A DNA stretch of 60,950 bases, counting the filler, from Nemertoderma westbladi (taxonomy: Eukaryota > Animalia > Xenacoelomorpha), in NCBI GenBank assembly GCA_032718475.1. It is 3 parts of 3 records of this genome, joined end to end, with 100 filler letters (N's around TTAATTAATTAA, not from the genome) between each part and the next. Parts side by side here need not be neighbours in the genome. Positions count along the whole stretch, not along the records: positions 25,507 to 52,268 come from JAUCBJ010003207.1; 2 more parts are not named here. One strand, given 5' to 3'. Made by a program: the position numbers and the translations under genes. Below the pieces are notes generated by a model. It worked only from the letters and a program-made list of their open reading frames with translations. It did not search any database and was not told the origin of the DNA. Below are positions 12,011 to 54,513 of the stretch, in pieces; the first letter of the stretch is position 1; every line of letters begins with the position of its first letter.

Positions 12011-12675
12011 CCGTAATACTACTCAGACAGTAGTCATGATCCATTATATTGATTATAAAACTAATACAGTAATAGGCCTAAATTATGTGAAAGGTATATC
12101 CACATTTTCCACAATCCTGCAATCCAGTTTGGCCTATCAATTATTTAAAATTTATTAGCACAACCGGTAGGCCTACCATTACCGTATTTAAATGGTAGGC
12201 TACACAGTAGGCCTATAGCAGTACCGGTGCCGGTACCGGTACTAAAATACAGAAATACCTGCTTTATACCTACATCGGTACATACAATACAGCAAAATAG
12301 TGCTATATATACTAATACCGGTACTGATAGCCTGAGAGAACAGCAGTAGAGAAACCGGTAGCATGGAACCTAACATTAGACTTTTGGAGGACATAAAAAA
12401 TAAAAAAAAGGACAAAAAAAGGATTTAAACGGACAATAAAAATTATTGCGGTTATTAATTTTGAATCAGAGAACAAGGAAAAGGCAATCATATTCTAGTG
12501 TACTGTATTACACTATTGTACTGTACTGTTACTGTTACATACGCACGCATCTACACATACCTGCCACCTGCATACTGACATACTGCAGCACTGCGTATGG
12601 TGGGTACCGCGTACCGGTACGTTCTGTAGGCCTAGTGGTGCTCTCATTTCATGATTACTGGATTATTACTGTATT

Positions 12676-13206
12676 ATGGCGTTACTTTTGTCGCGGATTT
12701 TGAGTAAATCGCCTGGAAATACAAGTCATGTCGTACGATTAAAGCGGTCCATAATCGCCACCCCCACTAACCAACAAACTATAGGCAACACGACCTGTTT
12801 TAGTTACGGAGTGCCGGATCGTCTATCACGGGTAGGCATACATAATGTATCGGCGCGATACATCAGCGCAAAGAACGCTATGATTTACCAAAAGTCGGAC
12901 AGTAAAAAGGTTGCGAAAATGTGGCTGATAGAACGTGTTCTGGCATCGGGTATGTTAGTGGCCATCCCTTTATCGTTCTTCTACCAACCCTGGTGGATGG
13001 ACTACGTGCTCACTGTCTCTATAGTGACGCATAGTTACTGGGGTTTGAGTCACTTGAGCAAGGACTATGTGCACGGCCCATGGCTTCCCCGACTAGTTCA
13101 TTGGTTCCTCGCTGCGGTTTCTACATTGGTTATTGCGATACTATTTTATTTCAACTACACCGATGTCGGCCTTATCGGCGCATCTAAACTCATCTGGTCA
13201 GTGTGA
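12676..13206 (+). CDS. SDHD: succinate dehydrogenase cytochrome b small subunit (CybS), single exon
   Basis: 176 aa with a presequence, WLIERVLA, THSYWGL (haem His), DYVH (quinone-site Asp-Tyr), YFNYTDVG and three TM segments. Confidence 0.93.
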   Translation: MALLLSRILSKSPGNTSHVVRLKRSIIATPTNQQTIGNTTCFSYGVPDRLSRVGIHNVSARYISAKNAMIYQKSDSKKVAKMWLIERVLASGMLVAIPLSFFYQPWWMDYVLTVSIVTHSYWGLSHLSKDYVHGPWLPRLVHWFLAAVSTLVIAILFYFNYTDVGLIGASKLIWSV

Positions 13207-17550: not shown

Positions 17551-18591
17551 TTAGGAACGTTTTGCTATTTTAGCGATTTCCCCTAAAAACACATCGCATT
17601 TATTAATGAGGATATCGAGTGACTCGATAACCAGTTCATGTGGAGGCAAGGCGCCGGTCGATTCTACTGTAAAAATAAAATGATTGCGAATCCGCGAGAG
17701 TTCCACCAAGGGAGATAACTCCGGGTGTCTGTGGACCTCACGACATCCGCTGTCCCTACGGGGGTTGGCAACGGTCGCAGTCACCTCACCGTCGTCGCCC
17801 CTAGCAACCTTAATGACGTCACCACGAGGGTCCTTAGTGAAACAGTCTGCGAGCCGTTGGGCGAGGTCTCCGCGGACCGGGGCCAGCAGCCGGATGGCCG
17901 GGAGCAGTCTGTAGCTCGCGATGGCAACCGGAGAGAACTTGGCGTGGACGTTACCGCATCCCTTGAAGCAATGCGCGACAATGTCCAACTCCTGCCCCGG
18001 ACGAAGTTTAGCTATTAGTATATCGGAATCCACAGGTAGAACGTCACCCGCACGGAGCCGCTCCGCCTGACCACCTAAAGGGTTCCACTTCATGTCGCTA
18101 GTGTACACGTTGCTATGGATATAGGCGTCCTTCGGGTCGCCGCTTTGTTTAACGTTTCGAGTGCATTTTACTTTCAGTTTCAACTCGACCGTGTTGAACT
18201 CAGTGGTCTCGTCGTCGGATCCTCGTGTTTCGAAGAGCCTCGGGTCCGCCTTCACCGGGATTAAACCGAGTCTGTGCGCGAGAAACTCGTCCTGTATGAG
18301 GGAGGTGTTCCCGTGGATGAACACGCGGTCGACCGCCATCGTCGGCAGTTCCCCTATGACAACCCGACGGATCGCGTTCGCTATCGCCGCGTCCACTCCC
18401 ACCAGGTCGAACTCCAAGCTCAGTGGGTCCCGCTCCGAGCCCATCTGGACGATCTCGATTCGCAATGAGCGCCGGAACGCACGGAAGTCCCACGCGCCGT
18501 CCCGGTTAGGGTAGGCTCCAGGGAAGTCTGAGGCGCTAACGTTTCGGACATGGCGTTCTTCTAGAATTACCTTGTCCCTGATCGTATCCAT
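17551..18591 (-). CDS. POLR1C: RNA polymerase I/III subunit RPAC1 (AC40), single exon
   Basis: 346 aa with LEFDLVGVDAAIANAIRR, NTSLIQDEFLAHRLGLIP, DILIAKLRPGQE, HAKFSPVA and HFIFTVESTGALPP. Confidence 0.96.
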   Translation of the reverse strand: MDTIRDKVILEERHVRNVSASDFPGAYPNRDGAWDFRAFRRSLRIEIVQMGSERDPLSLEFDLVGVDAAIANAIRRVVIGELPTMAVDRVFIHGNTSLIQDEFLAHRLGLIPVKADPRLFETRGSDDETTEFNTVELKLKVKCTRNVKQSGDPKDAYIHSNVYTSDMKWNPLGGQAERLRAGDVLPVDSDILIAKLRPGQELDIVAHCFKGCGNVHAKFSPVAIASYRLLPAIRLLAPVRGDLAQRLADCFTKDPRGDVIKVARGDDGEVTATVANPRRDSGCREVHRHPELSPLVELSRIRNHFIFTVESTGALPPHELVIESLDILINKCDVFLGEIAKIAKRS

Positions 18592-20082: not shown

Positions 20083-23000
20083 TTATACTTGTGCGGGCTC
20101 TAATACTTTAATAATTTTATGGCACATTGATGCGGATCGGGTTCCGAGGTTATCAAATACTCTGGATAGGGATGACGATAGTGGTGGAAAGTCGAAATCC
20201 AAGCGAATACTTTCGGTTAGTGGGCAGACAAAGAATATGTGATGATCTGATTGGGTAGAACCACATAAGCATTTCAGCATTTACGATTCTCTCTCGGAAT
20301 CCGACATCCGAGACCATCGGTGTATCTCCATTGGTAGCCGATGGGAACTCAATCTGATCCTTGAAAATGAGATTCTCTCCCACTCGGGTACATTAGGATC
20401 AGAGTATAATTCGTGGGGTTTCTGAGTTGGGTTGTATGCCACATAATTCACACACCTTGTCGTTATGGCTGTAGGAGTTCGATCTTTTGCAGCTTGGAGT
20501 TCCGACATGACATGACCCGTATCTAATAGCTCTTTGGCGTATTTTCCCATTGGTGAGTTTACTGATGTAGCTTCGTTCATAATGTAGTTATGATAACTGT
20601 CTTTATATCCAGGCCGTGAGGACAATGACCTCAGGAACTTTAACTGCCGATTCTTAATGATACTCTTGACATGTTCAGTGCTAGTTTCAATAAGGACGAG
20701 ATCATTTGGTGTTGTTAATCGAACTGAGAGTAGTTGTTTAAGCGTTCTGTAAAACACTGAAACAATTGGTTTGATGTTATTACATAACCATGTTTCGCAT
20801 CCGTATAATAGCGAAGATTGGAGAGCAGCCTGCCATACTGACTTCTTCACGGTAAAGGGAGCGTCACAGTTTTTGCCGAGGAATGAAGTGAATTTGTGGC
20901 AGTTACCAATACGCATCTTAATTTCGTCATCAATTTGAACCGCTACGGGGTGAATTGATATTAAAGATCCCAAATAGACATATGAGGATACAATTGAGAT
21001 TGTGATGTTCCCTATCAAGATGGGGATTCTGTCGCTATCGAGAGTGGATGAGGTCAGAAATTTCGACTTTTTAGGATGTAAAGTCATTCCAATTTCATCG
21101 CATACATCTTTAACCCTATTAGTACCGGGCTATAAAATGTTGTACAAATACCGGGGGGGGGGGGGGGGTCATATTGACCCCTCCCTCCAAAATCTACAAA
21201 TATTTACGAAAACGTCTGATTTTTTGTTTGTACGTAGGTATCACTTGTCTGGATCCGACCGAAAAAAAAAATTTTCGAAAAAATGTACTGGGGTGGTTAT
21301 ATTGCAGCACCAAAATTACAAGTAGTGCACAATTTTCACAAAATTTGAAAGTTCATTTTCGGCTAATTATTTTTCAATACAGGTTTTCTGGGGTGCAAAA
21401 TACATTGGAAAATATTTAAAAATGATATGATTACTATAAATGGCTGTTTAGTCCTCTCTGCGTAGGAAAAAAATGAAAAAAACAAGTAACCAGCACTTTT
21501 CAGTTAGAACACAAAATTTTTAATTCACTTATACGATGCTATAATTTCACATTTTCAGGTTTTCGAGGGCGCTGATTCTAATGGAATACATTTCTAATAT
21601 GCCAGATCATTGCTACTTGTATTTTTCGGCGTAATTTGGCAAATTTTGGTGCTAGCACCAAATTTCGTACCCATCACCAAAAAGTACAAGTTTGCGATGT
21701 CCAGTGCTGTTTTTATTGATTCCATCGGATTCAGGACCCTCATAAACCCGTATAACGCAAGAAACAAGGTGATACTATCTACTGATCAATTTGCATATTT
21801 TCCAAAATTTGGTGCTGGCACAACAATTTTCACCCACCGGCGAAAAATACAAGTTTGAGAACTCTTATGAAATTTTTACTGATTCCATTGAATTCAGAAC
21901 CATCACAAACCCGTATAACGCAAGAAACAAGGTGACACAATCAATTGATATATTTGATGGTTTTCAAAATTTGGTGCTAGCACCACATTTTGCACCCACA
22001 TCCGAAAAATACAAGTTTGAAATGTCTAGTTCGATAATTATATATTCCATTGAATTCAGAACAGCCATAAACCTCTAAAACGCAAGAAATAAATTGTCAC
22101 AAGCAATTTTATCTATTGAATGGATTTTCAAAATTTCGTGCTAGCACCAAAATTTGCACACAGCACCGAAAAATACGAGTTTGATACGCTTGGTGCAACT
22201 CGTATATATTTCATCGAATCCAGAACCCCAAAAAACCCCAATTGCGTAAAAAACAAGTTTCAAACAATCAATTTACAAAATTGACATATTTCAAAATTTG
22301 GTGCTGGCACCAAAATTTGGCACCCACCGAAAAAAACAAGTTTGAAATTTCTAAATCAATTTATATGAATTCCATCCAATTTCTAAGACCATAAAACCGG
22401 TGTAAATAAAAAATAGAGATGTTACAATTCATATTTAATGAAATGTAATTTTCAAAAAACGTCTCAAAAAAGTGCCAAAAGTAGGGTTAAAAAATGGTGC
22501 TGTAACTCGAAAAGTACCCAATATTTTTGAAAACGGTTTTCACTACTAGGAAGACAATAGATTTTTAGGAAAAGTCATAAAATTTCAGATTCCCTACTGC
22601 GTTTGTTTCAGAATTATAATAAAAAAACCACGGGGGGGGGGTCATATTGACCCCCCCCCCCCCGGGTTTAATAGGGTTAAGGATGTTAAGTTTATCAGTT
22701 AACTTTGCTCGGGAGGTAGCCAATACACATGTGTCATCCATTAATAATGTTCCATGAAGAGAATCTAGCCAACTGTCCTTTCCTAAACGATCCATTTTTG
22801 TAATCGTAGGGTCTATGTGTGTACAAAATAGTGGACAGCTGGAAGGCTTACCCTGTCCTACACCGCCCGTACTCTCAAACATTGTGTTGCCTATTACATT
22901 TATAGTTTCCTGCATTGATACTGATAAAGCCATAAGAAACCTTCTGCCACAACCCATCTGTTTCAATTTCCTGAGTAAGACTATCCTGTCAACTTTGTCA

Positions 23001-23900
23001 TAGGGCTTCTCGTAGTCGATGAAGGCAATGAATAACTCTCGCTTTGTTTTGATGGCAATATCGATTGCCAAACGAACACACAATATCTGTTCAGTACAGC
23101 CTCGTCCCTTCTGTGCGCCTGCCTGATATTGAGACGGTTTCGACCATAAATTAAAACGCTCAGTAAGGACGGAGTCGTACAATTTAGACAAGGCCGGAGC
23201 GACCGAAATTCCCCGATAATTCTCTGGTAGTGACTTAATTCCTTTCTTAAAAATCGTAAACATCAGGAAGTGGACCAATCTGTGGGGTATGGGACCTTAC
23301 CAGAGAAAACATCATTAAAGCATAAAGTAACTGCAATTAGCCAGTCATCGCTTAATAATTTGAGGATTCCTGGAGGTAGACCATCTATTCCTGCCGATTT
23401 TGAAGCTTTAAATTTCGCTAAGCAGATTGAAACTTCGTTCGGGTTTATATCGCTGTCTAGAATTGGAATAAAGATTTCTATTGACTTTATTTCGTTGTTA
23501 ATTACATCTGTGATAGATTGTGCATGTTCCTGAGAAGATAACAGCTGCTTGAAATAAGCGGCGAATTGCTCACTAGAAGGGCTTTCTGAGTATTTTTTTG
23601 AGATAAGTTGAGAGTTATAGCAAATAGACCCATTCCAATCTATTGCATTCCAAATAGTTTTCAGGTCGACTTTATTGACTAACCACTTCCAGCTATTATT
23701 TGAGTTCCTTTCGTGTGTACTGCGGTTAATAGGCATGACGGGTGGTTTCTTTTGAGTTTTCGATTGTATAGCTAGATTTGTTAGGGTTGTTGTTATTACT
23801 GAGTGCATGTTGTCACCGCTTTGTGACCTGGGTATGTTGCTAAGCCGTTGTTTGAACAATTCGTGGTTGATCGAGTTATAGAAAGAATTGTCAACGAATT
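20083..23900 (-). mobile_element. 5'-truncated LINE ORF2 (RT plus C-terminal Cys/His knuckle), frameshifted and split by a TTAA element
   Basis: KSAGIDGLP, PENYRGISV, AFIDYEKPYDKV, GVGQG, LMDDT, YVYLGS and CLCG..H..FVC across ORFs 23263-23994, 22565-23278, 20281-21087 and 20083-20280. Confidence 0.9.
21114..22676. mobile_element. non-autonomous piggyBac-like element nested in the LINE
   Basis: TTAA|CCCTATTA ... TAATAGGG|TTAA, subterminal GGGGGTCATATTGACCCCC palindromes and about five internal ~163-bp repeats (21640-22420). Removing it restores the RT frame KLNILK-DVCDEIGMTLHPKKS. Confidence 0.9.
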
Positions 23901-24450
23901 GTTGGCTTCTCTCTCTCTCCAGTAGGGGGTGAGACAGGCAGCCGGTCAGGAGATAACTGACGCCTGTGAGACCGATTGTGTCCGGTAATTCCACTGGCCT
24001 CTAGTGGCCGGACCTCCGCATTACTAATGTAATCCATAGTGGGGGGTTGGGGGTGCTTTTTTGCCGAGTCTATCTACTCTGGCGCACATGACCCACCATT
24101 GGCTGTGCAACTCATCTGCTGGGTCATGCCCTGTACCCCTGCTGCCAGGTGCAGGTCGCAGTGAAGTGTACTCAGAGTGGACATAGAACACTCTACTCCT
24201 GACCAGCCATTGGTAGATCACCATCTGCCTGGCCAGGCCATATACCCCTGCAGCCAAGTACATGGGTCCTTAATCCAGGACCAACGGCGTCCTTATCCCA
24301 GAACAAATGGGGTCCTAGTTACAGGACCAGATTTGCCCTAGTAAGAGGGTCTATGCAGCTACAGGTGGCACCTCCTTTATGCTGCATGGAGGTGGCAAGT
24401 TTTCTTGATCAATGACCTAGAATACCTGACCTGACTGAATGGATGACTGG

Positions 24451-25406: not shown

Positions 25407-25506
25407 NNNNNNNNNNNNNNNNNNNNNNNNNNNNNNNNNNNNNNNNNNNNTTAATTAATTAANNNNNNNNNNNNNNNNNNNNNNNNNNNNNNNNNNNNNN
25501 NNNNNN
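25407..25506. other. scaffold gap with artificial TTAATTAATTAA spacer
   Basis: N runs flank TTAATTAATTAA, in the same format as 52269-52368. Confidence 0.97.
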
Positions 25507-26939: not shown

Positions 26940-27484
26940 GTTGTTTAAATTATCTTTTAATTGTCTTTCGGGGCTATAAAACTCCTGTTCCACCAACCCC
27001 TTGTAATTTTTAAAATAGCTCATTTATAAAGATTTGAAATGTTCTAAATATTTTAGGTTTTATAAAAAATGTTCTAGAACATATAATTTTGTTCTAGGCC
27101 ACTATCCAAAAGATACAAAAATATAAAAAAACGTTATAGAATGAGAATAACTTGTTCTGGAACATTTTATAAGGAACATTTTCAAGACATTTTCAACAAC
27201 AAAGTGTACATTGTTTATTTTGACCTAATTTATTTGCAGGAAGGATCTAGTTACACTTTGACATTGACATTATCCAATCACAAACAGTATTAGACTGAAG
27301 TAGTTTGTAAAAGGTAAAATCAAGTGCGAAATAGGTCAAAACCAGACCAATCTAGCAACTCGGTTTCCAAATCTATTACCTATTAAAGCAATTAAAACAA
27401 AAACAATTATTATATTACAAAATTACTAGTGACAGGCCTAGCGGCCCGATAAGGAACCGACTTTTTATAAATAAAATAGACGAT

Positions 27485-27728
27485 TGGGGTCGACTCGGCT
27501 CGCTGGACTCGACTCGGCTTGGTCCGGCTCAACTCGGTTCGATTCGGCTCGATCCTCTCGATTCGGCTTGATCGGCTTGACTCAGCTCGATCGGCTCGGT
27601 CTGGGTCGATTGGACTCAACTTGGTTGGACTCGGCTCAATTGGGCTCGACTCATCTCTATTGGGCTCGACTCGGCTCGATCGGCTCGGTACAGCTCGATT
27701 GGGCTCGATTGGTCTTGACTCGGTCTTG
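27485..27728. repeat. degenerate pentamer repeat (GGCTC/GACTC), probably a DNA-transposon subterminal region
   Basis: Runs of CTCGA/CTCGG/CTTGA follow TAGTGACAGGCC at about 27427. Confidence 0.7.
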
Positions 27729-30700
27729 ACTAACTAACAGTATCACATGTGTAAGTGGAGACTAACCATATCGCATGTGTAAGTGGAGACTAACTAACCG
27801 TATCGCATGTGTAAGTGGAGACTAACTAACCGTATCACATGTGTAAGTGGAGACTAACCGTATCGCATGTGTAAGTGGAGACTAACCGTATCGCATGTGT
27901 AAATGGAGACTAACTAACCGTATCACATGTGTAAGTGGAGACTAACTAACCGTATCGCATGTGTAAGTGGAGACTAACCATATCGCATGTGTAAGTGGAG
28001 ACTAACCGTATCGCATGTGTAAATGGAGACTAACTAACCGTATCGCATGTGTAAGTGGAGACAAACCGTATCGCATGTGTAAATGGAGACTAACTAACCG
28101 TATCGCATGTGTAAATGGAGACTAACTAACCGTATCGCATGTGTAAGTGGAGACTAACTAACCGTATCGCATGTGTAAGTGGAGACTAACTAACCGTATC
28201 GCATGTGTAAGTGGAGACTAACCGTATCACATGTGTAAGTGGAGACTAACTAACCGTATCGCATGTGTAAGTGGAGACTAACCGTATCGCATTTGTAAGT
28301 GGAGACTAACTAACCGTATCACATGTGTAAATGGAGACTAACTAACCGTATCGCATGTGTAAGTGGAGACTAACTAACCGTATCACATGTGTAAGTGGAG
28401 ACTAACCGTATCGCATGTGTAAGTGGAGACTAACCGTATCACATGTGTAAGTGGAGACTAACTAACCGTATCACATGTGTAAGTGGAGACTAACCGTATC
28501 GCATGTGTAAGTGGAGACTAACCGTATCACATGTGTAAGTGGAGACTAACCGTATCGCATTTGTAAGTGGAGACTAACTAACCGTATCACATGTGTAAAT
28601 GGAGACTAACTAACCGTATCGCATGTGTAAGTGGAGACTAACTAACCGTATCACATGTGTAAGTGGAGACTAACCGTATCGCATGTGTAAATGGAGACTA
28701 ACTAACCGTATCGCATGTGTAAATGGAGACTAACTAACCGTATCGCATGTGTAAGTGGAGACCAACTAACCTTATCACATGTGTAAATGGAGACTAACTA
28801 ACCGTATCGCATGTGTAAGTGGAGACTAACCGTATCGCATGTGTAAGTGGAGAATAACTAACCGTATCGCATGTGTAAGTGGAGACTAACTAACCGTATC
28901 GCATGTGTAAGTGGAGACTAACCGTATCACATGTGTAAATGGAGACTAACTAACCGTATCACATGTGTAAATGGAGACCAACTAACCGTATCACATGTGT
29001 CAATGGAGACTAACAACCGTATCGCATGTGTAAGTGGAGACTAACTAACCGTATCGCATGTGTAAATGGAGACTAACTAACCATATCGCATGTGTAAGTG
29101 GAGACTAACCGTATCGCATGTGTAAGTGGAGACTAACTAACCGTATCGCATGTGTAAGTGGAGACTAACCGTATCACATGTGTAAATGGAGATTAACTAA
29201 CCGTATCACATGTGTAAGTGGAGACTAACTAACCGTATCGCATGTGTAAGTGGAGACTAACTAACCGTATCGCATGTGTAAGTGGAGACTAACTAACCGT
29301 ATCGCATGTGTAAATGGAGACTAACTAACCGTATCGCATGTGTAAGTGGAGACTAACTAACCGTATCGCATGTGTAAGTGGAGACTAACCGTATCGTATG
29401 TGTAAGTGGAGACTAACCGTATCGTATGTGTAAGTGGAGACTAACTAACCGTATCGCATGTGTAAGTGGAGACTAACTAACCGTATCACATGTGTAAATG
29501 GAGACTAACTAACCGTATCACATGTGTAAATGGAGACTAACCGTATCGTATGTGTAAGTGGAGACTAACCGTATCGCATGTGTAAGTGGAGACTAACTAA
29601 CCGTATCGCATGTGTAAATGGAGACTAACTAACCGTATCGCATGTGTGAGTGGAGACTAACTAACCGTATCGCATGTGTAAGTGGAGACTAACTAACCGT
29701 ATCACATGTGTAAGTGGAGACTAACCGTATCGCATGTGTAAGTGGAGACTAACTAACCGTATCGCATGTGTAAGTGGAGACTAACTAACCGTATCACATG
29801 TGTAAATGGAGACTGTCAATGTAGACATTTTGTCCTGAGCCCAGAAAGACCGGCTTTGGAATCTCGGTGTTTTCAGTCTTTAGCCCAACATTAGTAGGCT
29901 TAATTATAGAACGTATATCTGTTAACTCACAAACAAACCAATTCATATCACATATCAATCAAACTTAACTTAACATTTTACTGCTATTTACTGTCGGTTA
30001 TTCATTATATCTGTTGATGGAATATTATATTTGGAATACTGATAAATAATCAGACACCCCAATCTTCTTGATATACTGAAGGTTAGAGAGACCGGTTACA
30101 TATAACGATTGCGACTTACATTAAAGTGGTTTGAAGTGAATCAAATGCTATTTCATAAGCACTACATGTACCGTCTGTTGTTCTCTTTATATGTGACTAA
30201 AATTAGTGAAGGTCGGCAGATCAGTGTGCAGCATTGCGCAGTATTGTGTATGATTGTGACTGATAACAAAGCATCTCCTAAAGAATGCGCCATATACGTG
30301 AATCTATAGCCATCCCGTTGTGTTTAGTTTAAGTCATAACTCTGTTTACATATTTAGAACGCCACGTCCTAAAGGAACTGTTAATATTTCCAGAAAGTGA
30401 ATAATATTTGTCAGAGATTATATATTACGATCAATCGAATAATACAGTAGGCCTACCCCGCAATACGGTTAGGCTTCCGAATCCAGTCTCCCGGGTATAT
30501 CCAGCGGGTGAATGATCGCGCATAGACTGGCTTCGGCTAATGTAGTGTATCAAATACTTGTCATAGGCTAAAGACGATCTATTATCTAAAAGACATCCCA
30601 ATTTGGCAGGTTAAACTGCTAAAGGTCTGAAAGCGCGAACACTAACCGTATCGCATGTGTAAGTGGAGACTAACTAACCGTATCGCATGTGTAAGTGGAG

Positions 30701-31997
30701 ACTAACTAACCGTATCGCATGTGTAAGTGGAGACTAACTAACCGTATCGCATGTGTAAATGGAGACTAACTAACCGTATCGCATGTGTAAGTGGAGACTA
30801 ACCGTATCGCATGTGTAAGTGGAGACTAACTAACCGTATCGCATGTGTAAGTGGAGACTAACTAACCGTATCGCATGTGTAAATGGAGACTAACTAACCG
30901 TATCGCATGTGTAAGTGGAGACTAACTAACCGTATCGCATGTGTAAATGGAGACTAACGGTATCGCATGTGTAAATGGAGACTAACTAACCGTATCGCAT
31001 GTGTAAGTGGAGACTAACTAACCGTATCGCATGTGTAAGTGGAGACTAACTAACCGTATCGCATGTGTAAGTGGAGACTAACTAACCGTATCGCATGTGT
31101 AAATGGAGACTAACTAACCGTATCGCATGTGTAAGTGGAGACTAACTAACCGTATCACATGTGTAAGTGGAGACTAACTAACCGTATCGCATGTGTAAGT
31201 GGAGACTAACTAACCGTATCGCATGTGTAAGTGGAGACTAACTAACCGTATCGCATGTGTAAATGGAGACTAACCGTATCGCATGTGTAAATGGAGACTA
31301 ACTAACCGTATCGCATGTGTAAGTGGAGACTAACTAACCGTATCGCATGTGTAAGTGGAGACTAACTAACCGTATCGCATGTGTAAATGGAGACTAACCG
31401 TATCGCATGTGTAAATGGAGACTAACTAACCGTATCGCATGTGTAAGTGGAGACTAACTAACCGTATCGCATGTGTAAATGGAGACTAACCGTATCGCAT
31501 GTGTAAGTGGAGACTAACTAACCGTATCGCATGTGTAAGTGGAGACTAACCGTATCGCATGTGTAAGTGGAGACTAACTAACCGTATCGCATGTGTAAAT
31601 GGAGACTAACTAACCGTATCGCATGTGTAAATGGAGACTAACTAACCGTATCGCATGTGTAAGTGGAGACTAACCGTATCGCATGTGTAAGTGGAGACTA
31701 ACCGTATCGCATGTGTAAGTGGAGACTAACTAACCGTATCGCATGTGTAAGTGGAGACTAACCGTATCGCATGTGTAAGTGGAGACTAACTAACCGTATC
31801 GCATGTGTAAATGGAGACTAACTAACCGTATCGCATGTGTAAGTGGAGACTAACCGTATCGCATGTGTAAGTGGAGACTAACCGTATCGCATGTGTAAGT
31901 GGAGACTAACTAACCGTATCACATGTGTAAGTGGAGACTAACCGTATCGCATGTGTAAATGGAGACTAACTAACCGTATCGCATGTGTAAGTGGAGA
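27728..31997 (-). repeat. 28/32-bp intronic satellite made of the WDR24 exon end plus 5' splice site, about 110 copies
   Basis: Minus-strand unit CTCCACTTACACATGCGATACG+GTTAGT(TAGT). The first copy is the coding end (STYTCDT) of the WDR24 exon. An insertion at 29814-30641 interrupts the array. Confidence 0.95.
29814..30641 (-). mobile_element. 828-bp TG...CA insertion in the satellite (putative solo LTR)
   Basis: Unique sequence with sharp edges in the array, bounded by TG and CA and homologous to 2626-3475. There is no canonical 4-6 bp TSD. Confidence 0.7.
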
Positions 31998-32868
31998 GCG
32001 ACGAACAATACTCTGTGTTGAATCCATCCGACTCGGGTTTACTTCTCCTGTTGAACATCATTGGTCGTTGTGATTGGGCGTATTGGGGCTTCTGTAGGAC
32101 AACGCCCCCAAGCGGCGGCTGCAAGGATCGACGCGAGCTGTCGGACGACCCGGTCGCTAGGGCGACTGCGTCCCCTCGGGAGTTCACGCTGAGTCCGACA
32201 GGGGGCGCCATCTCGGCGGTGCGGATCCCGTCTACGCGGCAGTTGAGACGGGCGATGGAGGAATCCTTGGAGACGGTGAGTAAAGTCATCCCCTCGGAGT
32301 CCTGTCGCCACCAAGAGAAGTCTGTGGTAACGTCCTTGTGGTTGTGGAAGGATTGGATGGGGATGTAAGGACGTTTAATATCCCAGATATTCACGGTAAA
32401 GTCGATAAGGAGGGAGGAAGTGGTTAGCTGTCTGGCGAATCCCGGACGCCACTTAACGCGAGCCACCGAGGCTATCGTCTGTATGGTCTGCTTCTCCCGG
32501 ATAGGGGAGACCCCGAGGTCCCAGACCTTGACGAGTTTGTCTCGACCGCCGGTGGCTAGGAGACCGTTGGCTACGTCCAGCGCGAACACTGGCCCCGTGT
32601 GGGCCGTAAAGTCCCACTGTCGTCGGTCCGGGGACCGCAGACTCCATTGCTCCACGGTTCCGTTCTCCAACGCGACGATAAACTCCCGGTTCACGAACAT
32701 TACGTCGCGAACGCGTTCCCCCACGTGGAACGTCTGAACCGAGAGTTTTTCTCGCAGGTCGAACAGCTTCACGAGGCCGTCGTGAGCGCCGCTCAGTAGG
32801 ACGTGGTGCTCGTCGTTATGGAAACGGATACGGTTCACGGTCTGCGCGTGTTCGCTGTACACCGTGTC
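31975..32868 (-). CDS. WDR24: GATOR2 subunit WDR24, second visible coding exon (the gene's 3' part was not found)
   Basis: Acceptor TTTTAG|GAC and donor ACG|GTTAGT, 894 nt, phase 0/0. WD40 repeats LLSGAHDG, FTAHTGPVF, LATGGRDK, QTIASVARVKWRP and IWDIKRPYIP. Confidence 0.9.
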
Positions 32869-33093
32869 CTAAAAGCAAACAACTTAGATTTAATAACAAC
32901 ACCAGTACCGGTATTTCGATTAAGAACCCAGGGTGATAAGGGGAAATCGACGCATAAAATCAGCTGGTTTAGAGAAATATCACATAACCTTTGCTATCAC
33001 GTAACCTTTGCTACTGACTCTCAATTTATTGTTTTGGTTAGAATAGCCAGCATATTACTGGTACGAGCTATTATAATTACCATGGATACCAAC

Positions 33094-33393
33094 CTGTTTA
33101 TTACGGGCTCCCTTCTGCAGGTTCCACAATACAACGGAACCATTAGTAGCTGCGCTAGCTATAACATTCTCATCGAATGGGTTCCAAGCCACATCGGTGG
33201 AACTGTAAGTGAGATTTAGATTCCTCCCAACACGAAGGTTGGCTATCTCTTTAAATTCGCTGTCCTCCACACTGTAGACTTTGAATAGATTGCGACCAAC
33301 AGTGGCAACTCTAAGTCCAATAGGAAGGTCTTTAAGATCCCGCGATGGCGAAAGGGATAACGCGCTGACTGGGAAACCAACGGACGCAGACAT
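33094..33393 (-). CDS. WDR24: WDR24 first visible coding exon
   Basis: NLRVGRNLNLTYSSTDVAWN...ASAATNGSVVLWNL...RNKQ, donor CAG|GTTGGT, splices in frame to 32868. A small upstream exon is possible. Confidence 0.88.
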
Positions 33394-35361
33394 TGTTGTA
33401 GCATTAGTTACAAAGCGAGTCTATCCGCTAGTACTTTATACAGTGTCTAACAACACTCCAACTCCACTAACTCCAGTAGTACCACCCCGCAGTGCCGAAA
33501 TGTTTTTAATACAGTTAATTATTAAAGTACATCACATCAGATCATCATCATCAAATTATAACGTACCTCTCTAGCCTACAGTTGTTATACTAGGCTAATT
33601 AACTTGGAAGAACTCGGAACTGGGGTGATTATGAGAAACAACACAGCATACACTGAGTAGGGATTATTGTGTTGTTGGAAATATGTTGCAATGCTTTATT
33701 AATACACTCATTATTGATTAAGATTTATGGTCAACAACATACAATGTAATATCATATGAGCTAGAGCTAGGTTACATTACACAATAAACATTGTGGGATC
33801 AGTACTGGTATTGGTATAATAATATGTAGGTTTAGCATAAGGTACTCTTACTCACTCATTCAGTATTATAGGCCTATCGCTTTCAACTAACTGCGTAATA
33901 TTTACAAGTTTTCATAAGATATTTTAGGCATTAATATAATATTGAAAAAAACAACAGAGACAGGCAGACAGACATGGAAATGAACTGTTTCAGTGTTCAG
34001 GGAATATCTGCGGCGTGTTTGAGGTTGTTTGTTGTGCCCCATTTAGTTTGCAAAACTGCATTTAATTTACTGAACGTTAGCGAGGTTAATTAAAAATTTG
34101 AATAATATAAGATGAGATGCATCGTTTTTATTTTATGAAGTTTGGTATCTAATACAATAGTAAACATAATAAGAACCTGTGTTCAGAAAAACGATTTTTA
34201 TTTTGATTCCAGAGGTAGTTCCTTGCCCAGACCACCGGTGTAAACATACTTAAAAGGATTAAAGGCGGGTAGCAGATCTGTGGGTGGTATCATTGGTCAA
34301 AATTGAGTTTATTGCCAATATTTCGGCCCAAACATGAAATTATATTGAAACAAATGAACAATATAAAACAAACAACAGGCCTTCAACAGGGCAGCTCGGT
34401 AATGCCTAACTACTGATTTTTATTTAGATGTACAATACTAATGTAGTACATATGTATATTTTGAAAGTTTTTGGTTTTATTGTTGAAATCTAATTGGTGG
34501 CCATAGTATTTGATAATTCAAGTCACCATTCCTGATAGTAATCAATAAAATTTGTTCTCGCTTCAAACTCCAAGAAACCATTACTTGGTTGCACCCAGGA
34601 TTGCACATTTACAACAACTTCTCTTCTGTTGTGTAACAGTAGGTTTGCCCATTACTATATTATACATTATCAGTAGATATGGGGGGGCACACCCATAACC
34701 AAACGAATACAAATATATGCAGGCTAAGCAAACTTACAGTAGATGCCACTCCCATATATAATAATAGAGAGCTGCCTCTCCCCAAGTCAATTAATTAGTA
34801 TGTATTCTTACGAACCTCAATACATTTAACAATATTAGTTTCCGTAGACGAGGCTAGCGATTCCTAATGACATACCATTTCTTTTCCATTATTTTGATGA
34901 ATGCCAACTGAAATTTCCATAGGCCAAAGCAGGGAATTATATTATTATACTGTAATACATAAAAGGATTTTCATTTATCACAGCATTATGCTTGTCTTTC
35001 TACATTATGGAGGATAATTATTTTAATAGTATACCTACAGTATTCTTAAAGAAACCAATATCAGAAGAGACCAAGAGAAATACGATAGAAATACAAATCG
35101 TTTCAAATGTAACAATAATGTATATTGGACTTTGAAATTCTCCAAAATAGTAATTAGACATTATTAATCAAACAGGATTATTAAACACTATGAATCATCG
35201 CTCCTTCCACCGCGAGGGACCGGAATGTACAGTATTGTACTAGAGTAGGCTCTGTGGTGAGTATGTTGGGCATGTTATAGATAATATTAATAAATTTGTA
35301 TATTGTTTATAATACACGAACTCGAATTTGTTACAAACTGTATGAAACATTCATATCATTC

Positions 35362-36576
35362 ATGGGACGACTGCTCAATTTTCCAATTGATGTCCCGGGG
35401 CCAGCAACATTCCTATCCCGTTACGCTGGGTTTCTCGGCTGGTTGCCATGGTTTTTGAGACGATGGATACTTGTGAACAAGGCGAAACCGAGTCAGAGAC
35501 CGGACGATGTTCAAGATGTGTTGGGGAACGATCCCTATAAAATAGATGAGATCGTTCATGGTAAAGTTTGGAAGATTGCCTACGAGTACGCGGATAACCT
35601 CGTAGCCCATCGCAGTCGACTCAAGTTCGTCGACTTTTCTTCTGAAGAATCAATCAATGCCATATTAGCTGAGGCCGCAAAAGATGGTAGAGAGTCCCAC
35701 GCCCAAGCTACAGAAGATATTGAAAGGATGAAAGAAGTCAACAATTTATCACCTGAGGAGGTCCATGCCGGTGGATACGTTAAAGCGGCGAGCAAGAACA
35801 TCAACATGTATGTTGTTAAACTAACATCCGGTGACGTCATATTGTACTGCCCAGTTCACATTCACAGGAATTCCACCTTGTCCAACTTCCTGGATAAACT
35901 GGGCCCCGTTAGGTGGATAATCATTGGCTCATCCTACCACACTCTCTTCCTGCCTTCCGCTATGAAAACCTTTCCAGAAGCGATGGTTGTTGGGGCAACA
36001 GGAGCCGAGCTTAAGCTGAAGGCGGTATCGGCTTTCATCCGCGGCAAATTGGATTATGATGTCACTAAATCGGAGGATAGATGCCACCTAGCGGATAAGT
36101 TTGATGTCAATGAGCTGGAGTTGCTGTTCATCGCCGGGGATGTGTTCAGCCAGGCGATCATCGTTCGTGCGTCCAACGCTCTCCTCGAGGCCGATGTCAT
36201 CTACTCACACCATCCAGGCTGCACCTGCGTCGCCTGCAACCTGCCAATCACCTCCTTCCCCACTTGGAATATTCGTCTACGTCTGTGGACCTTTCGCTCC
36301 AACGAAGTCACTCATCCCGATTACGGTCTTCCCTACTACCGCTTCAGCCTAATGAACCCCGACAGCGTTTTGTACAACATGCTGATAACGCCGCCTCATG
36401 ATGGTGTTAACATCCTCGCTGCTATGGCGGGCTCATTGCGAACGGCTTTAGCGTCGTCCGTGGATGTCGTATGCTCCGTCCACAGCTCGATTCTAACTCC
36501 CGACGATTACAAGAAGAGTGTGGATCGCAACTGGTACTGGTTGGACGGAAAGTCACTACTTAATCAGAATGACTAA
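35362..36576 (+). CDS. DUF4336-like (metallo-beta-lactamase-like fold) protein, single exon
   Basis: Long ORF with first ATG at 35362. MYVVKLTSGDVILYCPV...LDKLGPVRWII..SSYHTLFL.....FPEA resembles the DUF4336 N-terminal motif. The family call is from recall. Confidence 0.65.
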   Translation: MGRLLNFPIDVPGPATFLSRYAGFLGWLPWFLRRWILVNKAKPSQRPDDVQDVLGNDPYKIDEIVHGKVWKIAYEYADNLVAHRSRLKFVDFSSEESINAILAEAAKDGRESHAQATEDIERMKEVNNLSPEEVHAGGYVKAASKNINMYVVKLTSGDVILYCPVHIHRNSTLSNFLDKLGPVRWIIIGSSYHTLFLPSAMKTFPEAMVVGATGAELKLKAVSAFIRGKLDYDVTKSEDRCHLADKFDVNELELLFIAGDVFSQAIIVRASNALLEADVIYSHHPGCTCVACNLPITSFPTWNIRLRLWTFRSNEVTHPDYGLPYYRFSLMNPDSVLYNMLITPPHDGVNILAAMAGSLRTALASSVDVVCSVHSSILTPDDYKKSVDRNWYWLDGKSLLNQND

Positions 36577-38694: not shown

Positions 38695-41600
38695 GTGGTT
38701 GTAACCCAACGGGAGGATACAACTATGGATGTAACCCAACAAGAGGATACAACTATGGATGTAACCCAACAAGAGGATACAGCTATGGATGTAAACCGCC
38801 CAGCTAGAGGATACAGCTATGGATGTAACCCAACAAGAGGATACAGCTATGGATGTAACCCAACAAGAGGATACAACTATGGATGTTACCCAACAAGAGG
38901 ATACAGCTATGGATGTATACCGCCCAACAAGAGGATACAGCTATGGATGTAACCCAACAAGAGGATACAGCTATGGATGTAACCCAACAAGAGGATACAG
39001 CTATGGATGTAACCCAACAAGAGGATACAACTATGGATGTAACCCAACAAGAGGATACAACTATGGATGTAACCCAACAAGAGGATACAACTATGGATGT
39101 CACCAAACAAGAGGATACAACTATGGATGTAACCCGCCAAACAAGAGGATACAACTATGGATGTAACCCGCCCAACAAGAGGATACAACTATGGATGTAA
39201 CCCAACAAGAGGATACAGCTATGGATGTAACCCAACAATAGGATACAACTATGGATGTAACCAAACAAGAGGATACAACTATGGATGTAACCCGCCCAAC
39301 AAGAGGATACAACTATGGATGTAACCCAACAAGAGGATACAACTATTTGATGTAACCCAACAAGAGGATACAACTATGGATGTAACCCATCCAACAAGAG
39401 GATACAACTATTTGATGTAACCCAACAAGAGGATACAACTATGGATGTAAACCGCCCAGCAAGAGGATACAGCTATGGATGTAACCCAACAAGAGGATAC
39501 AGCTATGGATGTAACCCAACAAGAGGATACAACTATGGATGTAACCCAACAAGAGGATACAGCTATGGATGTAACCCATCCAACTCCAACAAGAGGATAC
39601 AACTATGGATGTAACCCATCCAACAAGAGGATACAACTATGGATGTAACCCATCCAACAAGAGGATACAACTATGGATGTAACCCAACAAGAGGATACAG
39701 CTATGGATGTAACCCAACAAGAGGATACAACTATGGATGTAACCCATCCAACTCCAACAAGAGGATACAACTATGGATGTAACCCATCCAACAAGAGGAT
39801 ACAACTATGGATGTAACCCATCCAACAAGAGGATACAACTATGGATGTAACCCGCCCAACAAGAGGATACAACTATGGTTGTAACCCAACAAGAAGATAC
39901 AGCTATGGATGTAACCCAACAAGAGGATACAGCTATGGATGTAACCCGCCCAACGAGAGGATACAACTATGGATGCAACCCAACAAGAGGATACAGCTAT
40001 GGATGTAACCCAACAAGAGGATACAGCTATGGATGTAACCCAACAAGAGGATACAGCTATGGATGTAACCCATCCAACAAGAGGATACAACTATGGATGT
40101 AAACCGCCCAACAAAAGGATACAACTATGGATGTAGACCGCCCAACAAGAGGATACAACTATGGATGTAACCCAACAAGAGGATACAGCTATGGATGTAA
40201 CCCGCCCAACAAGAGGATAAAACTATGGATGTAACCCAACAAGAGGATACAACTATGGATGTAACCCAACAAGAGGATACAACTATGGATGTAACCCAAC
40301 AAGAGGACACATCTATGGATGTAACCCGCCCAACAAGTGGATACAGCTATGGATGTAACCCAACAAGAGGATACAACTATGGATGTAACCCAACAAGAGG
40401 ATACAACTATGGATGTAACCCAACAAGAGGATACAACTATGGATGTAACCCAACAAGAGGATACATCTATGGATGTAACCCGCCCAACAAGTGGATACAA
40501 CTATGGATGTAACCCAACAAGAGGATACAACTATGGATGTAACCCAACAAGAGGATACAACTATGGATGTAACCCATCCAACTCCAACAAGAGGATACAA
40601 CTATGGATGTAACCCATCCAACAAGAGGATATAACTATGGATGTAACCCATCCAACAAGAGGATACAACTATGGTTGTAACCCAACAAGAAGATACAGCT
40701 ATGGATGTAACCCAACAAGAGGATACAGCTATGGATGTAACCCGCCCAACGAGAGGATACAACTATGGATGCAACCCAACAAGAGGATACAGCTATGGAT
40801 GTAACCCAACAAGAGGATACAACTATGGATGTAAACCGCCCAACAAGAGGATACAACTATGGATGTAAACCGCCCAACAAGAGGATACAACTATGGATGT
40901 AACCCAACAAGAGGATACAGCTATGGATGTAACCCGCCCAACAAGAGGATAAAACTATGGATGTAACCCAACAAGAGGATACAACTATGGATGTAACCCA
41001 ACAAGAGGATACAACTATGGATGTAACCCAACAAGAGGACACATCTATGGATGTAACCCGCCCAACAAGTGGATACAGCTATGTATGTAACCCAACAAGA
41101 GGATACAACTATGGATGTAACCCAACAAGAGGATACAACTATGGATGTAACCCAACAAGAGGATACAACTATGGATGTAACCCAACAAGAGGATACATCT
41201 ATGGATGTAACCCGCCCAACAAGTGGATACAACTATGGATGTAACCCAACAAGAGGATACAACTATGGATGTAACCCAACAAGAGGATACATCTATGGAT
41301 GTAAACCGCCCAACAAGAGGATACAACTATGGATGTAACCCAACAAGAGGACACATCTATGGATGTAACCCGCCCAACAAGTGGATACAGCTATGGATGT
41401 AACCCAACAAGAGGATACAACTATGGATGTAACCCAACAAGAGGATACAACTATGGATGTAACCCAACAAGAGGATACAACTATGGATGTAACCCAACAA
41501 GAGGATACATCTATGGATGTAACCCGCCCAACAAGTGGATACAACTATGGATGTAACCCAACAAGAGGATACAACCCAACAAGAGGATACATCTATGGAT

Positions 41601-42055
41601 GTAAACCGCCCAACAAGAGGATACAACTATGGATTTAACCCGCCCAACAAGTGGATACAACTATGGATGTAACCCAACAAGAGGATACAACTATGGATGT
41701 AACCCAACAAGAGGATACATCTATGGATGTAAACCGCCCAACAAGAGGATACAACTATGGATTTAACCAACCCAACAAGTGGATACAACTATGGATGTAA
41801 CCCAACAAGAGGATACAACTATGGATGTAACCCAACAAGAGGATACAGCTATGGATGTAACCCAACAAGAGGATACAACTATGGATGTAACCCAACAAGA
41901 GGATACAACTATGGATGTAACCCAACAAGAGGATACATCTATGGATGTAAACCGCCCAACAAGAGGATACAACTATGGATTTAACCCACCCAACAAGTGG
42001 ATACAACTATGGATGTAACCCAACAAAGGATACAATTAACCCATCAAGAGGATAC
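38695..42055. repeat. 30/34-bp minisatellite, about 3.3 kb, with higher-order duplications
   Basis: Unit GGATACA(A/G)CTATGGATGTAACCCAACAAGA with +4 (CGCC/ATCC) variants. Variant patterns recur at a 732-bp offset (40125 vs 40857). Confidence 0.97.
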
Positions 42056-42881: not shown

Positions 42882-43650
42882 GGAGCTACAAGGAAGGCCA
42901 TTACAGGAGCTACAAGGAAGGCCATTATAGGAGCTACAAGGAAGGCCATCACAGGAGCTACAAGGAAGGACATTACAGGAGCTACAAGGAAGGACATTAC
43001 AGGAGCTACAAGTAAGGACATTACAGGAGCTACAAGGAAGGCCATTACAGGAGCTACAAGGAAGGCCATTACAGGAGCTACAAGGAAGGACATTACAGGA
43101 GCTACAAGGAAGGACATTACAGGAGCTACAAGGAAGGCCATTACAGGAGCTAAAAGGAAGGCCATTACAGGAGCTACAAGGAAGGCCATTACAGGAGCTA
43201 CAAGGAAGGACATTACAGGAGCTACAAGGAAGGACATTACAGGAGCTACAAGGAAGGCCATTACAGGAGCTAAAAGGAAGGCCATTACAGGAGCTACAAG
43301 GAAGGCCATTACAGGAGCTACAAGGAAGGCCATTACAGGAGCTACAAGGAAGGCCATTACAGGAGCTACAAGGAAGGACATTACAGGAGCTACAAGGAAG
43401 GCCATTACAGGAGCTACAAGGAAGGCCATTACAGGAGCTACAAGGAAGGACATTACAGGAGCTACAAGGAAGGACATTACAGGAGCTACAAGGAAGGCCC
43501 TTACAGGAGCTACAAGGAAGGCCATTACAGGAGCTACAAGGAAGGCCATTACAGGAGCTACAATGAAGGCCATTACAGGAGCTACAAGGAAGGCCATTAC
43601 AGGAGCTACAAGGAAGGCCATTACAAGAGCTACAAGGAAGGCCATTACAG
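42882..43650. repeat. 24-bp indel-free tandem repeat, 32 copies
   Basis: Unit GGAGCTACAAGGAAGG(C/A)CATTACA. The array ends at ACAG|GTAAAA. Confidence 0.97.
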
Positions 43651-45061
43651 GTAAAACTTAATAAAATGTGATGAAATTCTGCTATAGAATGGATTATTTT
43701 TACACATCAATAAAAAAAATAATTCTTAAAATTTAACTAAAATTTGATATTTTTTTTTAAATAAGAACTTATTTATTTCGAGGAATTTAATTTCTTAACC
43801 ACCATAAAATATTATTACCTGACAGTTTATTTATTATTGTGTATAAAGAACATTAATTAATACATGTCCCAACGTAGACGTAATGAATGGTAATTAACAG
43901 TTTATGTTTAGTACGACGTGAGTTGTGGATGTGGGACGAACCGCAGAGTGAGTGAGTCTTTAGGCAAACCATACAGATTAGCACGAGACAAATGGACACT
44001 GCCCGGTCTAATTCAATATTTGAACAGTTGGCGTTGGTCAACAATCGAAATTGTTTAGTTTTGACTCTTAATGTACTAAATAATGCCTCGTTGGCCGCTA
44101 CTAAAACCGGATGCAACCATCTAACACCATCTAGCGCAACCACAACATGGGTACACGCACAGTCGTACGCATATCACAAAGGTGCCCCAACAATCTGCTT
44201 TAACTCCCCCCGTAACACTTATATGGACATAATATGTACACAAATTGGTCAATAATATAAAAATAGAAGAAGCCAAATAAGGTTACACACTAATGTTAAT
44301 TGTCGTCCTCTTTCCTAAGACAGGAAATATTTAATCTAAAAAACATAGTGGATTTGGTATATATATGTTTGTGTTTGTATATGTGAGTGTATATTATTAT
44401 TAGTAACATGTCGAACATATTGTATTGTATAATTAACCTAAAATCGTGAGGTCAAATACTAGAAAATCAAGATTTTCTAGTATTTTAGCACTTTCGCTAA
44501 AATTTTAATTTTTGAACAAAAAGTTTATAAACTTCTAAAGTCTATAATATATCGAGAATTCACCTCACATAATTTCGATTTATTTAATAATTTTAGATTC
44601 TTAAAGTGATTGTGGTTCATTTTATAATAGGTACCAGTTTATAATCATTTTAACGTCTCTAACGTATAGTTTAACAAACAACAACTTATACAGGTGCGGT
44701 AGTGTGTGTCGGCTTAAGTATTAATATTAATTACGTACCGGTACCCCGTATAAACAAACCCAAACCCCTGGAACTTTCGAACTGTAACGCAATACGAACG
44801 TCTGCCAACTATATTTTAGCACAGAGTATTATATTATCTCCCAGTCGCAAAGGCCTTTATCTTTATCGCTTTAACACCTAAGCGATCTGGGTCACTAATA
44901 ATGCTACTGCGTTACCATTGATAAACCCCATGACTTAATAAACTACCCGATGTGATTGTTTAACAAAACAAGTGAACGTCATGGAGCAATCAATATAAAG
45001 ACTACAGAGACTGAGACAAACAAAGTCGGTATATTATAAAGCTGTCGGTAGATAGATTACA

Positions 45062-45652
45062 TCATTCTGTAGGGAAAGTCGGGTTTACCAGATGACTTTG
45101 GCGGCGATGTTGGTTGTCCTTCATGTGTAGAGCCTCATCGACTACGGCTACCGTCGGTATGGCACCGGTTACCGGCATCCGCTGCTTGGGTCGTCTTCCC
45201 GGCCCGCCAGGGACGCCCTTCGCCATGTTGTAGTCGCCACTATCAAAGTATTTCTGTCCCTTTTGCATCCGCTTCCGAAGGAAGTCGGAACCCGCACCAC
45301 CGCCTCGCCCAACCCCCGGGAACTTCGACCGTAGTTTCTGCTCTTCTAATTGCTCGATCGATAGCGGCGGTTTATTTATAGTGACCGGGACTTTGAAGGT
45401 GTCGCCGCCTTCTTCCTCGGTTTTATCTTCAACAGGAGACTGGATGCACGGCTGGGGGGGTTGATAAAGCTTGGGTATTGGGTATTTGGCTCGTGGCGGG
45501 GGCACAGGGGACTGGGTGTCCGAAGGTTTATCGATATCGGAATTAGTAGATACGTCAACTATTTCGATTTGAGTTTTCTCTATATTATCTGGATTCTCAT
45601 CAGCTGGTTGATGGAAACCGGTTCCGTCTGTTCCCGATGGAGGCCTATCCAT
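45062..45652 (-). CDS. ENSA: alpha-endosulfine / ARPP19 family PP2A-B55 inhibitor with a long N-terminal extension, single-exon CDS
   Basis: [10 protein letters not shown]...[25 protein letters not shown] (Greatwall site) and TGAIPT. The first ATG is at 45652. Confidence 0.9.
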
Positions 45653-46666
45653 ATTCTGATAGTGTTTCGATGACTTTATGCAGCAGCACACACAGTGATC
45701 ACCACAGACAAAATAATCAGCCAGTCAGCCTGAATCGCTGTCTGAATCTATAATCAGATAGTGTATATATATCTGTACATAAGATTAGATATTGAGGTAG
45801 AGCAGAATGCGATTTTAGCTCATATGCTTCACCTCAATAAACTATCTTTAACTCCCTCAATTTATTGTCAATCGGTCTAGATGGTTGATGTAGGCCTAAA
45901 TAACAGCAGAATAACCTTAATATAATAAACGTAACAACTTTCTATCTGTCTGCTTTATATTTTTATTTTTTTGATTATTTTTGTGAATCATAACAATCAA
46001 TTTTTATTGTGAATATTTTATTGCACATAGCTTACTGTTTACTGTACCCTTGTATTTATTTGATTTTATATTTTCAGCACTGCTTCTGTCTATTCTACTG
46101 CACCGTTTTATGCTTTTTTATTTTTGAATGTAAATATGATATCTTTATTCACTGCACCAAATTTATTTATTATTTTTTTTTTATAAATTTTCAGAAATTC
46201 GTAGACTATGACATTGTTGCGTTAATTTTAATTTTATTTTGTAGAATATATTTCTGTATTTTTGTGTAATTTTAGAGCCTGCTCGGGCAACCATAAGTGT
46301 TTAATTTTTAATAACCTGGTTGTTTTCTCTCCTCATGTACTTTTAATTTAATTTTTATAAATACATAGAGTGATAATAATAATAAATAAATAAAATATCT
46401 TTATCTACCATTCTACCGTATTATGTTTTTTTACTTTAATCTGTTAATTATTCATTACTTTGAATGGTCAATATTATGAATTCGTATTATCTTACAGGGC
46501 CAACTGGTTGTTATAATAGTTGCAAGAAGAATGTACTGATGAATGAATGTACTGAAGGCTATTGTTGTATTGTATGAAAGGGTAAAATTGGTTTCAGTAT
46601 ACCCACTTGCTACTTGGCAATTTTTGTAGTTCCAAAACCCGTTGATTTTCTGATGTTACTCTACTG

Positions 46667-46971: not shown

Positions 46972-47232
46972 TACCCCAGTTTACCCTAATCATACAACTG
47001 CACCAACTGAGGGCCTTACTCTAGGCCTACTAAATCTGATGTAAATGTACAATAACTACAGAACTAATACGGTACCGGTAATAAAGGCTTTACTACAGTA
47101 CAGCAGTACTCTGGTACTGCCTGACTGCAGTACTGCTATAAAACTGTAAAAGTACTGAAGTAATACTGTAATACTCCTTGGTACTGTCTGACTGTGGCAA
47201 TAGGCCTACTATCTGACTGTAATACATGTAAT

Positions 47233-52268: not shown

Positions 52269-52368
52269 NNNNNNNNNNNNNNNNNNNNNNNNNNNNNNNN
52301 NNNNNNNNNNNNTTAATTAATTAANNNNNNNNNNNNNNNNNNNNNNNNNNNNNNNNNNNNNNNNNNNN
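52269..52368. other. scaffold gap with artificial TTAATTAATTAA spacer
   Basis: N runs flank the spacer. Confidence 0.97.
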
Positions 52369-54186: not shown

Positions 54187-54355
54187 CTGAGAACCAAGGA
54201 AATCGATCACTTTGCTAGTAAATTCGGTTGGGTTGTCTAACGTAAATGTTGGTTGTTCGTTATAAATGCGAACGTAAACATCGCCAATTACCAACTCCGT
54301 AGAATGTACGGTAAACACGAAGTCCGACCCATACGACGAGTCGCATTCTCCCGTT
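54187..54355 (-). CDS. DNAJC13: DNAJC13/RME-8 exon (last visible)
   Basis: Acceptor TTTTAG|A and donor CAG|GTAAAT. Encodes TGECDSSYGSDFVF...ELVIGDVYVRIYNEQPTF...DFLGSQ. Confidence 0.9.
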
Positions 54356-54513
54356 CTAAAATATAAAACATATAAGTCAGACGTTTCTAAGTTGAGCGTT
54401 TAATGATGCGTTTGATTAATATTATTATTAAATTTTAGAATTTCTAACAAATCCCAATATATGACGTGTTTTCAACAAAAAATAGTTCAAGCACATGATA
54501 AGGTTCTACTTAC

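Follow-up and report, generated by a model that had tools for sequence, protein, structure and literature searches.

Splice-donor use beside a 112-copy exon–intron junction array in WDR24 of Nemertoderma westbladi

When the end of an exon and its 5′ splice site are repeated more than a hundred times at the start of the following intron, which copy does the spliceosome use, and does copy number matter for the gene? The WDR24 locus of Nemertoderma westbladi raises this question in a window of 60,950 nucleotides, by which we mean the whole stretch of DNA analyzed. The window consists of three contigs joined by N44-TTAATTAATTAA-N44 spacers at 25407–25506 and 52269–52368. Because these contigs are unrelated, gene order across the spacers is meaningless; spacers truncate both WDR24 and RME-8.

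The junction array of WDR24

WDR24 lies on the minus strand. Exon 1 (33094–33583, ATG at 33393, 100 codons) was placed by a profile match (E 7e-35), translation and a spliced contig of sequencing run X4; intron 1 (32869–33093, 225 nt, GT–AG) is skipped by that contig at a depth of 614. Exon 2 (31975–32868, 894 nt, 298 codons), delimited by homology and the end of the X4 match, encodes the rest of the WD40 propeller and a linker. In a protein search, the named top matches of exon 2 were WDR24 proteins with 42–47% identity and E values down to 2e-60. WD40 families in Pfam matched the N-terminal propeller, and a WDR24 profile (88 homologs, length 802) aligned positions 29–128 with exon 1 and 125–414 with exon 2, as far as the residue that immediately precedes the donor. 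When aligned with 18 homologs, FNTEYCSSLSTYT from the window pairs with, e.g., FAGLASSALNVFE. As the conserved stretch begins before the array and ends within its first unit, the repeat unit is derived from the gene and is not an inserted satellite. The first-pass annotation had proposed that the unit consists of the WDR24 exon end and its own donor, with the frame ...CSSLSTYTCDT followed by GTT AGT TAG and the donor at 31975/31974; the sequence bears out the frame and position, and both the reach of the homology and the end of the spliced contig at the first donor agree with the proposed unit.

The 18 homologs continue for 357–426 residues past the array boundary. No downstream WDR24 exon was found in the window by tblastn or by the full and C-terminal profiles (best E 4.7), a search whose control recovered held-out 40-residue homolog pieces in all three of the controls (5–6 pieces per protein), and the C-terminal solenoid and zinc-binding region had no profile match in the window. 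This half of the protein is missing because the WDR24 contig ends at the artificial spacer 25407–25506, that is at 25507, 2.2 kb beyond the array. The best 150 of 22,595 matches included no full-length WDR24 from this organism, and across four runs no substitutions are listed in the WDR24 exons.

The array spans 27728–31996, with 112 monomer starts on the minus strand between 31996 and 27760 and a TRF score of 3808, far above chance. Its unit reads CTCCACTTACACATGCGATACG/GTTAGT(TAGT), where the slash marks the exon end: 22 exon bases and 6 or 10 intron bases, with the donor ACG/GTTAGT. Monomers of 32 nt (75) and 28 nt (36), which differ by one GTTA unit, account for all but one of 31 nt, in a tally where a 28-mer and a 32-mer stand for the two long rows. 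The first monomer (31965–31996, minus strand), with 22 exon and 10 intron bases, has an in-frame TAG at 31968–31966. The locus is thereby a head-to-tail array of a short unit whose first monomer spans the true exon end and donor. Monomer parsing divides it into a highly uniform block A of 44 copies (30641–31996) and a block B of 68 copies with more variants (27728–29811), both on the minus strand; the distal junction of block B is also present in runs X1 and X3. The previous estimate of about 110 copies was thus close to the count, while the split of the array by 829 bp had been overlooked. Directly after the array, in the intron flank, lies an older, decayed 10-bp repeat (27481–27727; TRF, 64% matches).

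Near-identical donors in the later monomers had also been noted, and the donor is exactly ACG/GTTAGT in 104 of the 112 copies, with GT at +1/+2 kept in every one (112/112). Within the unit, C>T occurs at position 6 in 33/112 copies and at position 16 in 23/112, and G>A at position 15 in 3/112. The change at position 16 is unevenly distributed, with 2/44 copies in block A against 21/68 in block B (Fisher p 6e-4, with copies that are not independent). All of the variants first described (C/T, G/A, 28 versus 32 nt) are present, and this variation is the pattern of a real array that is turning over. On the opposite (+) strand, the units at 27728–31996 contain donor-like GTAAGT and branch-like CTAAC words.

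The 829-bp segment between two monomers (29812–30640, minus strand) is a dispersed repeat, since it is 81% identical over 838 columns to window positions 2627–3451; these are two copies, on different contigs, of an unnamed 0.8-kb repeat. The insert has no terminal inverted repeat and a target duplication of 3 bases at most. It opens with an acceptor-like CTTTCAG, with a donor-like site about 170 nt further on, and the stretch between them is a possible cryptic exon, absent from the X4 contig. The insert may be polymorphic; the three DNA runs list no loose end for it, which proves nothing by itself.

Three DNA runs were available, X1 and X2 from one sample, possibly the source of the window, and X3 from another study. 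In all three, the single-copy contig ends at 31968 and short array contigs stack at 46–98 times single-copy depth, and in X1 and X3 the far end of the array continues into the flank that follows it in the window. As the runs reproduce both the array and its junctions, the array is not an assembly error. The ratios of array to single-copy depth were 59, 98 and 46, the first two from one sample, and refer to depth, not copy number. Differences in copy number estimated from depth were rejected because two runs of the same sample differ 1.7-fold. Reads were placed only beside the arrays.

Donor choice in the transcript

The only RNA-like run is X4, which is searchable as contigs, the run listing having labelled every holder 'DNA?'. 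We take it to be RNA on two grounds: its contigs lack four GT–AG introns, from two genes, and the middle of WDR24 intron 1 is without coverage. Mapped to 31935–33700, X4 yielded two records, in which contigs show the main form and rare variants are dropped. Record 24, a contig of 2,855 nt at depth 614, matches both exons without the 225-nt intron 1 between them and parts from the genomic sequence at exactly 31975, beyond which it continues for at least 255 letters of different sequence. The cut at this position is unambiguous, as the next contig letter differs from the genomic G, and the loose letters can be taken to adjoin the break since a loose end in the DNA runs reproduces the window's distal flank. 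Read by hand, the 30 letters past 31975 continue in frame as SADGGVAANS; they are absent from the window (0 matches at ≤3 mismatches). Past the junction, 1,471 nt of the contig are left, enough for the 357–426 residues of the homologs. Neither of the two records covers 31935–31974, where the bin depth of 197.9 equals 614.4 × 19/59.

The 5′ splice site used is ACG/GTTAGT (31969–31977, minus strand, phase 0), which agrees with MAG/GURAGU at 7 of 9 positions. GTTAGT is a working donor in this animal, because X4 also skips three GT–AG introns of RME-8, one of which has the same GTTAGT (56811). Given that the contig is spliced and leaves at 31975, WDR24 is expressed and its first donor is used, as had been anticipated from the claim that the spliceosome must take the first site. 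Judged from one run and one contig, splicing proceeds mainly from the most upstream donor. Two outcomes had been named that would speak against this account, an exon end upstream of 31997 and an unexpressed pseudogene; the exon end lies at 31975, and X4 shows the gene to be spliced.

What a slip to a later donor would produce can be read from the units. All 6 of the 6 donors computed in copy 2 or later bring in GTT AGT TAG, because copy 1 is of the 32-nt form, and the product would be 398 residues followed by Val-Ser and a stop. RNA bearing such a stop is prone to degradation by nonsense-mediated decay. Slipped WDR24 RNA would likely be degraded or yield a protein limited to the propeller. The earlier statement that any downstream donor includes a stop therefore holds from copy 2 onward, but not for a weak +4 site inside copy 1 (5/9 of the consensus), where a slip leads to a frameshift. 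An RNA hairpin that hides the donors was considered and rejected (z +3.5): the RNA surrounding the first four donors folds worse than all 200 shuffles, so structure does not choose the site.

Precedents, origin and competing explanations

Repeats of this type are already known from human genes. In the available text of Borensztajn et al. 2006 (PMC1557585), intron 7 of human F7 carries a 37-bp VNTR of which only the most upstream site appears in RNA; the pseudo-sites are functional but unused, the choice is unchanged from 1 to 12 monomers, only sites of perfect consensus competed, and RNA structure does not explain the choice. F7 and WDR24 are alike in that, as far as that text describes F7, the first monomer spans the exon–intron boundary, identical donors are reiterated in the intron, only the upstream donor is found in RNA and structure offers no explanation. 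They differ in scale and in consequence: the same text gives F7 5–9 copies with 4 exon and 33 intron bases, against 112 copies with 22 and 6 or 10 in WDR24, and two F7 pseudo-sites cause no early stop, whereas later WDR24 donors (copy 2 onward) are unproductive. F7 is, moreover, a mammalian gene, while the WDR24 array belongs to Nemertoderma westbladi.

The anatomy of the CBS repeat is closer. The accessible portions of PMC2630376 and PMC5188458 describe a 31-bp VNTR, c.1444_1467+7(16_21), at exon 13/intron 13, with repeat number reportedly linked to lower activity. With 24 exon and 7 intron bases and sequence variants among its units, as given there, it resembles the WDR24 array; however, it has 16–21 copies, its pseudo-sites are used and its repeat number reportedly lowers activity, whereas WDR24 contigs show only the first donor. 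According to the text available from PMC1557585, CBS and 6-16 each use two pseudo-sites besides the true one, in 6-16 the nearest two of 25, while in LMNB2 (100 bp, 10–15 copies) and PDGF intron 4 (81 bp, 16–18 copies) the true site only is used. In 6-16, LMNB2 and PDGF too, on that account, a junction-spanning minisatellite repeats the donor, with far fewer copies than in WDR24. Among 9,537 human splicing-associated tandem repeats, repeat length can shift splicing (PMC10078293, in part); the examples given in that part involve bound proteins or the distance to the branch point, whereas WDR24 repeats donors. In the literature searched, which excluded most subscription papers, we found neither a genome-wide survey of junction arrays in a non-human species nor any mention of WDR24 together with a tandem repeat. 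Set beside F7, CBS, 6-16, LMNB2 and PDGF as the accessible texts present them, what is new here is the copy number, the lineage (an animal for which the protein collections searched contain no close relative) and a second array on another contig.

In our reading, held with considerable confidence, the array is a junction minisatellite of which the one transcript found uses the first donor only; the remaining 111 copies are probably decoys that stay silent and are tolerated, not a control device. There is no sign of selection against the decoys, since GT is intact in 112/112. The array likely began as a tandem duplication of 32 bp across the exon–intron boundary, probably via a 2-base match, since TC is shared, at either end, by the first unit and the flank that follows the last one. 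Slippage of GTTA would then have given the 28-bp form, unequal exchange would have amplified the unit, and the dispersed repeat would have inserted mid-array later. The first donor, being transcribed first, would close the exon before the later sites, equally sub-optimal and identical to it, could compete, as in human F7. The analogy has a limited reach, as the F7 experiments covered up to 12 copies in mammalian cells, and minor leakage would be hidden, since contigs lose rare forms and stop-bearing RNA would decay.

The first-pass annotation had instead suggested that copy number sets WDR24, and with it mTORC1, output: a share of splicing would go to later donors, yield stop-bearing RNA and grow with copy number. 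It would help such dosage control that each donor from copy 2 onward is unproductive, that 104/112 sites are identical to the true one, and that CBS, whose anatomy is nearly the same, has its repeat number reportedly tied to activity in the accessible accounts. Yet the first donor is found in the only transcript contig, with no array-bearing X4 contig beside this main form at depth 614; the decoy GTs have not been lost (112/112); and donor choice in F7 is independent of copy number from 1 to 12 (PMC1557585, available text). Far copies should in any case add little, because CBS and 6-16 use only two extra sites by the same account. We regard copy-number control as unlikely, and even if it operated it would be no new kind of control, CBS being, on the accessible texts, a reported precedent.

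Each copy also presents AG, 23 nt and GT, with TAG immediately upstream of the bases taken from the exon and the donor downstream, as would be needed if the array were removed stepwise or donated a 23-nt micro-exon. The AG has no preceding pyrimidine tract, however, 23 nt would shift the frame, and the 30 X4 letters past 31975 match the monomer in the first three only, which makes splicing of this kind very improbable. A wrong joining of reads in the array, or a truncated WDR24 pseudogene, might be suspected from the C-terminal half absent from the window, from a contig that ends 2.2 kb past the array, and from the 829-bp insert without a loose end in three DNA runs (by itself no proof of anything). 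The absence is explained by the contig spacer, though, array words occur at 46–98 times single-copy depth in X1–X3, the distal flank is confirmed in X1 and X3, and X4 holds a long spliced WDR24 transcript; an artefact or a dead gene is hardly conceivable on these grounds.

With silent decoys as the preferred reading, the first donor still wins over more than 100 identical rivals across 4 kb in a distant animal, for the main form in one run. There are 112 donors here against 5–26 in the human cases in the available text of PMC1557585, which extends the rule slightly and changes no model. The finding would matter more if such arrays were common and decayed with donor strength, providing many natural loci for the study of 5′ splice-site choice.

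A second array in RME-8 and other features of the window

A second junction array lies in an intron of RME-8/DNAJC13 on another contig (58406–60950, minus strand; TRF, 79 copies) and runs off the window end. Its unit of 31 or 36 bp encodes NTRDNLK, followed by the donor AAG/GTGAGT (9/9 of the consensus); the next exon starts TAQEQ after ttttatag, and insect homologs read NTRDNLK[MI]AQDH. The junction is assigned by homology, as the true exon is beyond the window and the junction has no X4 cover: X4 gives none above 57798, and no X8 records were placed. With 8 donors, a 31-bp reach and 5 long arrays chosen for the count, a donor would by a rough estimate be covered by one of the other four arrays with a probability of about 1.6%. 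A quick RME-8 tree of 41 rows placed the window's sequence next to an octocoral (support 90) and inside none of the marked groups.

The RME-8 array has higher-order blocks and many donor-breaking variants. The donor GT is intact in 45/75 parsed units, a parse in which four or five double units were counted as one, with 29/37 in the half nearer the exon and 16/38 in the far half. There are five different changes at +1/+2, the commonest of which merely makes GC, and variation is equally frequent at the neutral positions −4 and −3 (24/71 and 21/71). This decay would fit the F7 finding that perfect sites compete, in a post hoc comparison of one locus with one. The link is weakened because −4 and −3 vary equally, GC is the commonest change and decay is greater far from the exon. 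One might extend the comparison to propose that this genome habitually grows giant minisatellites from exon–donor junctions whose fate follows donor strength, the weak WDR24 copies being ignored and the strong RME-8 copies competing and being silenced by selection. We consider this doubtful; if true, the genome would offer, at many loci, a natural test of whether the first donor prevails among 100 or more copies, with measurable, length-dependent leakage at strong-donor loci.

Around the remaining arrays, 0/57 flanking frames match Pfam. A 24-bp array of 32 copies (42882–43651) is open in several frames, likewise with no Pfam match in its flanks; on the + strand its last copy ends in the donor-like CATTACAG/GTAAAA, and on the − strand its units end in an acceptor-like pyrimidine run and TAG, so that it could be another junction-derived array. 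A 30-bp array of about 106 copies (38696–42035) starts 8 bases past a donor-like AAG/GTAGTT (+), with no coding flank found in Pfam.

Several genes in the window occupy a single frame: GADD45GIP1-like (8023–8781, −), SDHD-like (12655–13206, +), POLR1C (17551–18591, −; best matches 51–57%) and endosulfine-like (45062–45724, −). These single-frame genes seem intron-poor in this animal. There is also a weak DUF4336-like frame at 35281–36576 (+). At 54209–54482, X1 and X3 each have a contig short of 274 bases beside contigs that retain them. The gap takes part of a small RME-8 exon at about 54187–54355, with 30 letters only on the short side, and may reflect either a deletion allele or a join caused by repeats. 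Long frames at 20281–24000, 47164–49287 and 52369–53552 resemble, by eye, remnants of reverse-transcriptase retroelements.
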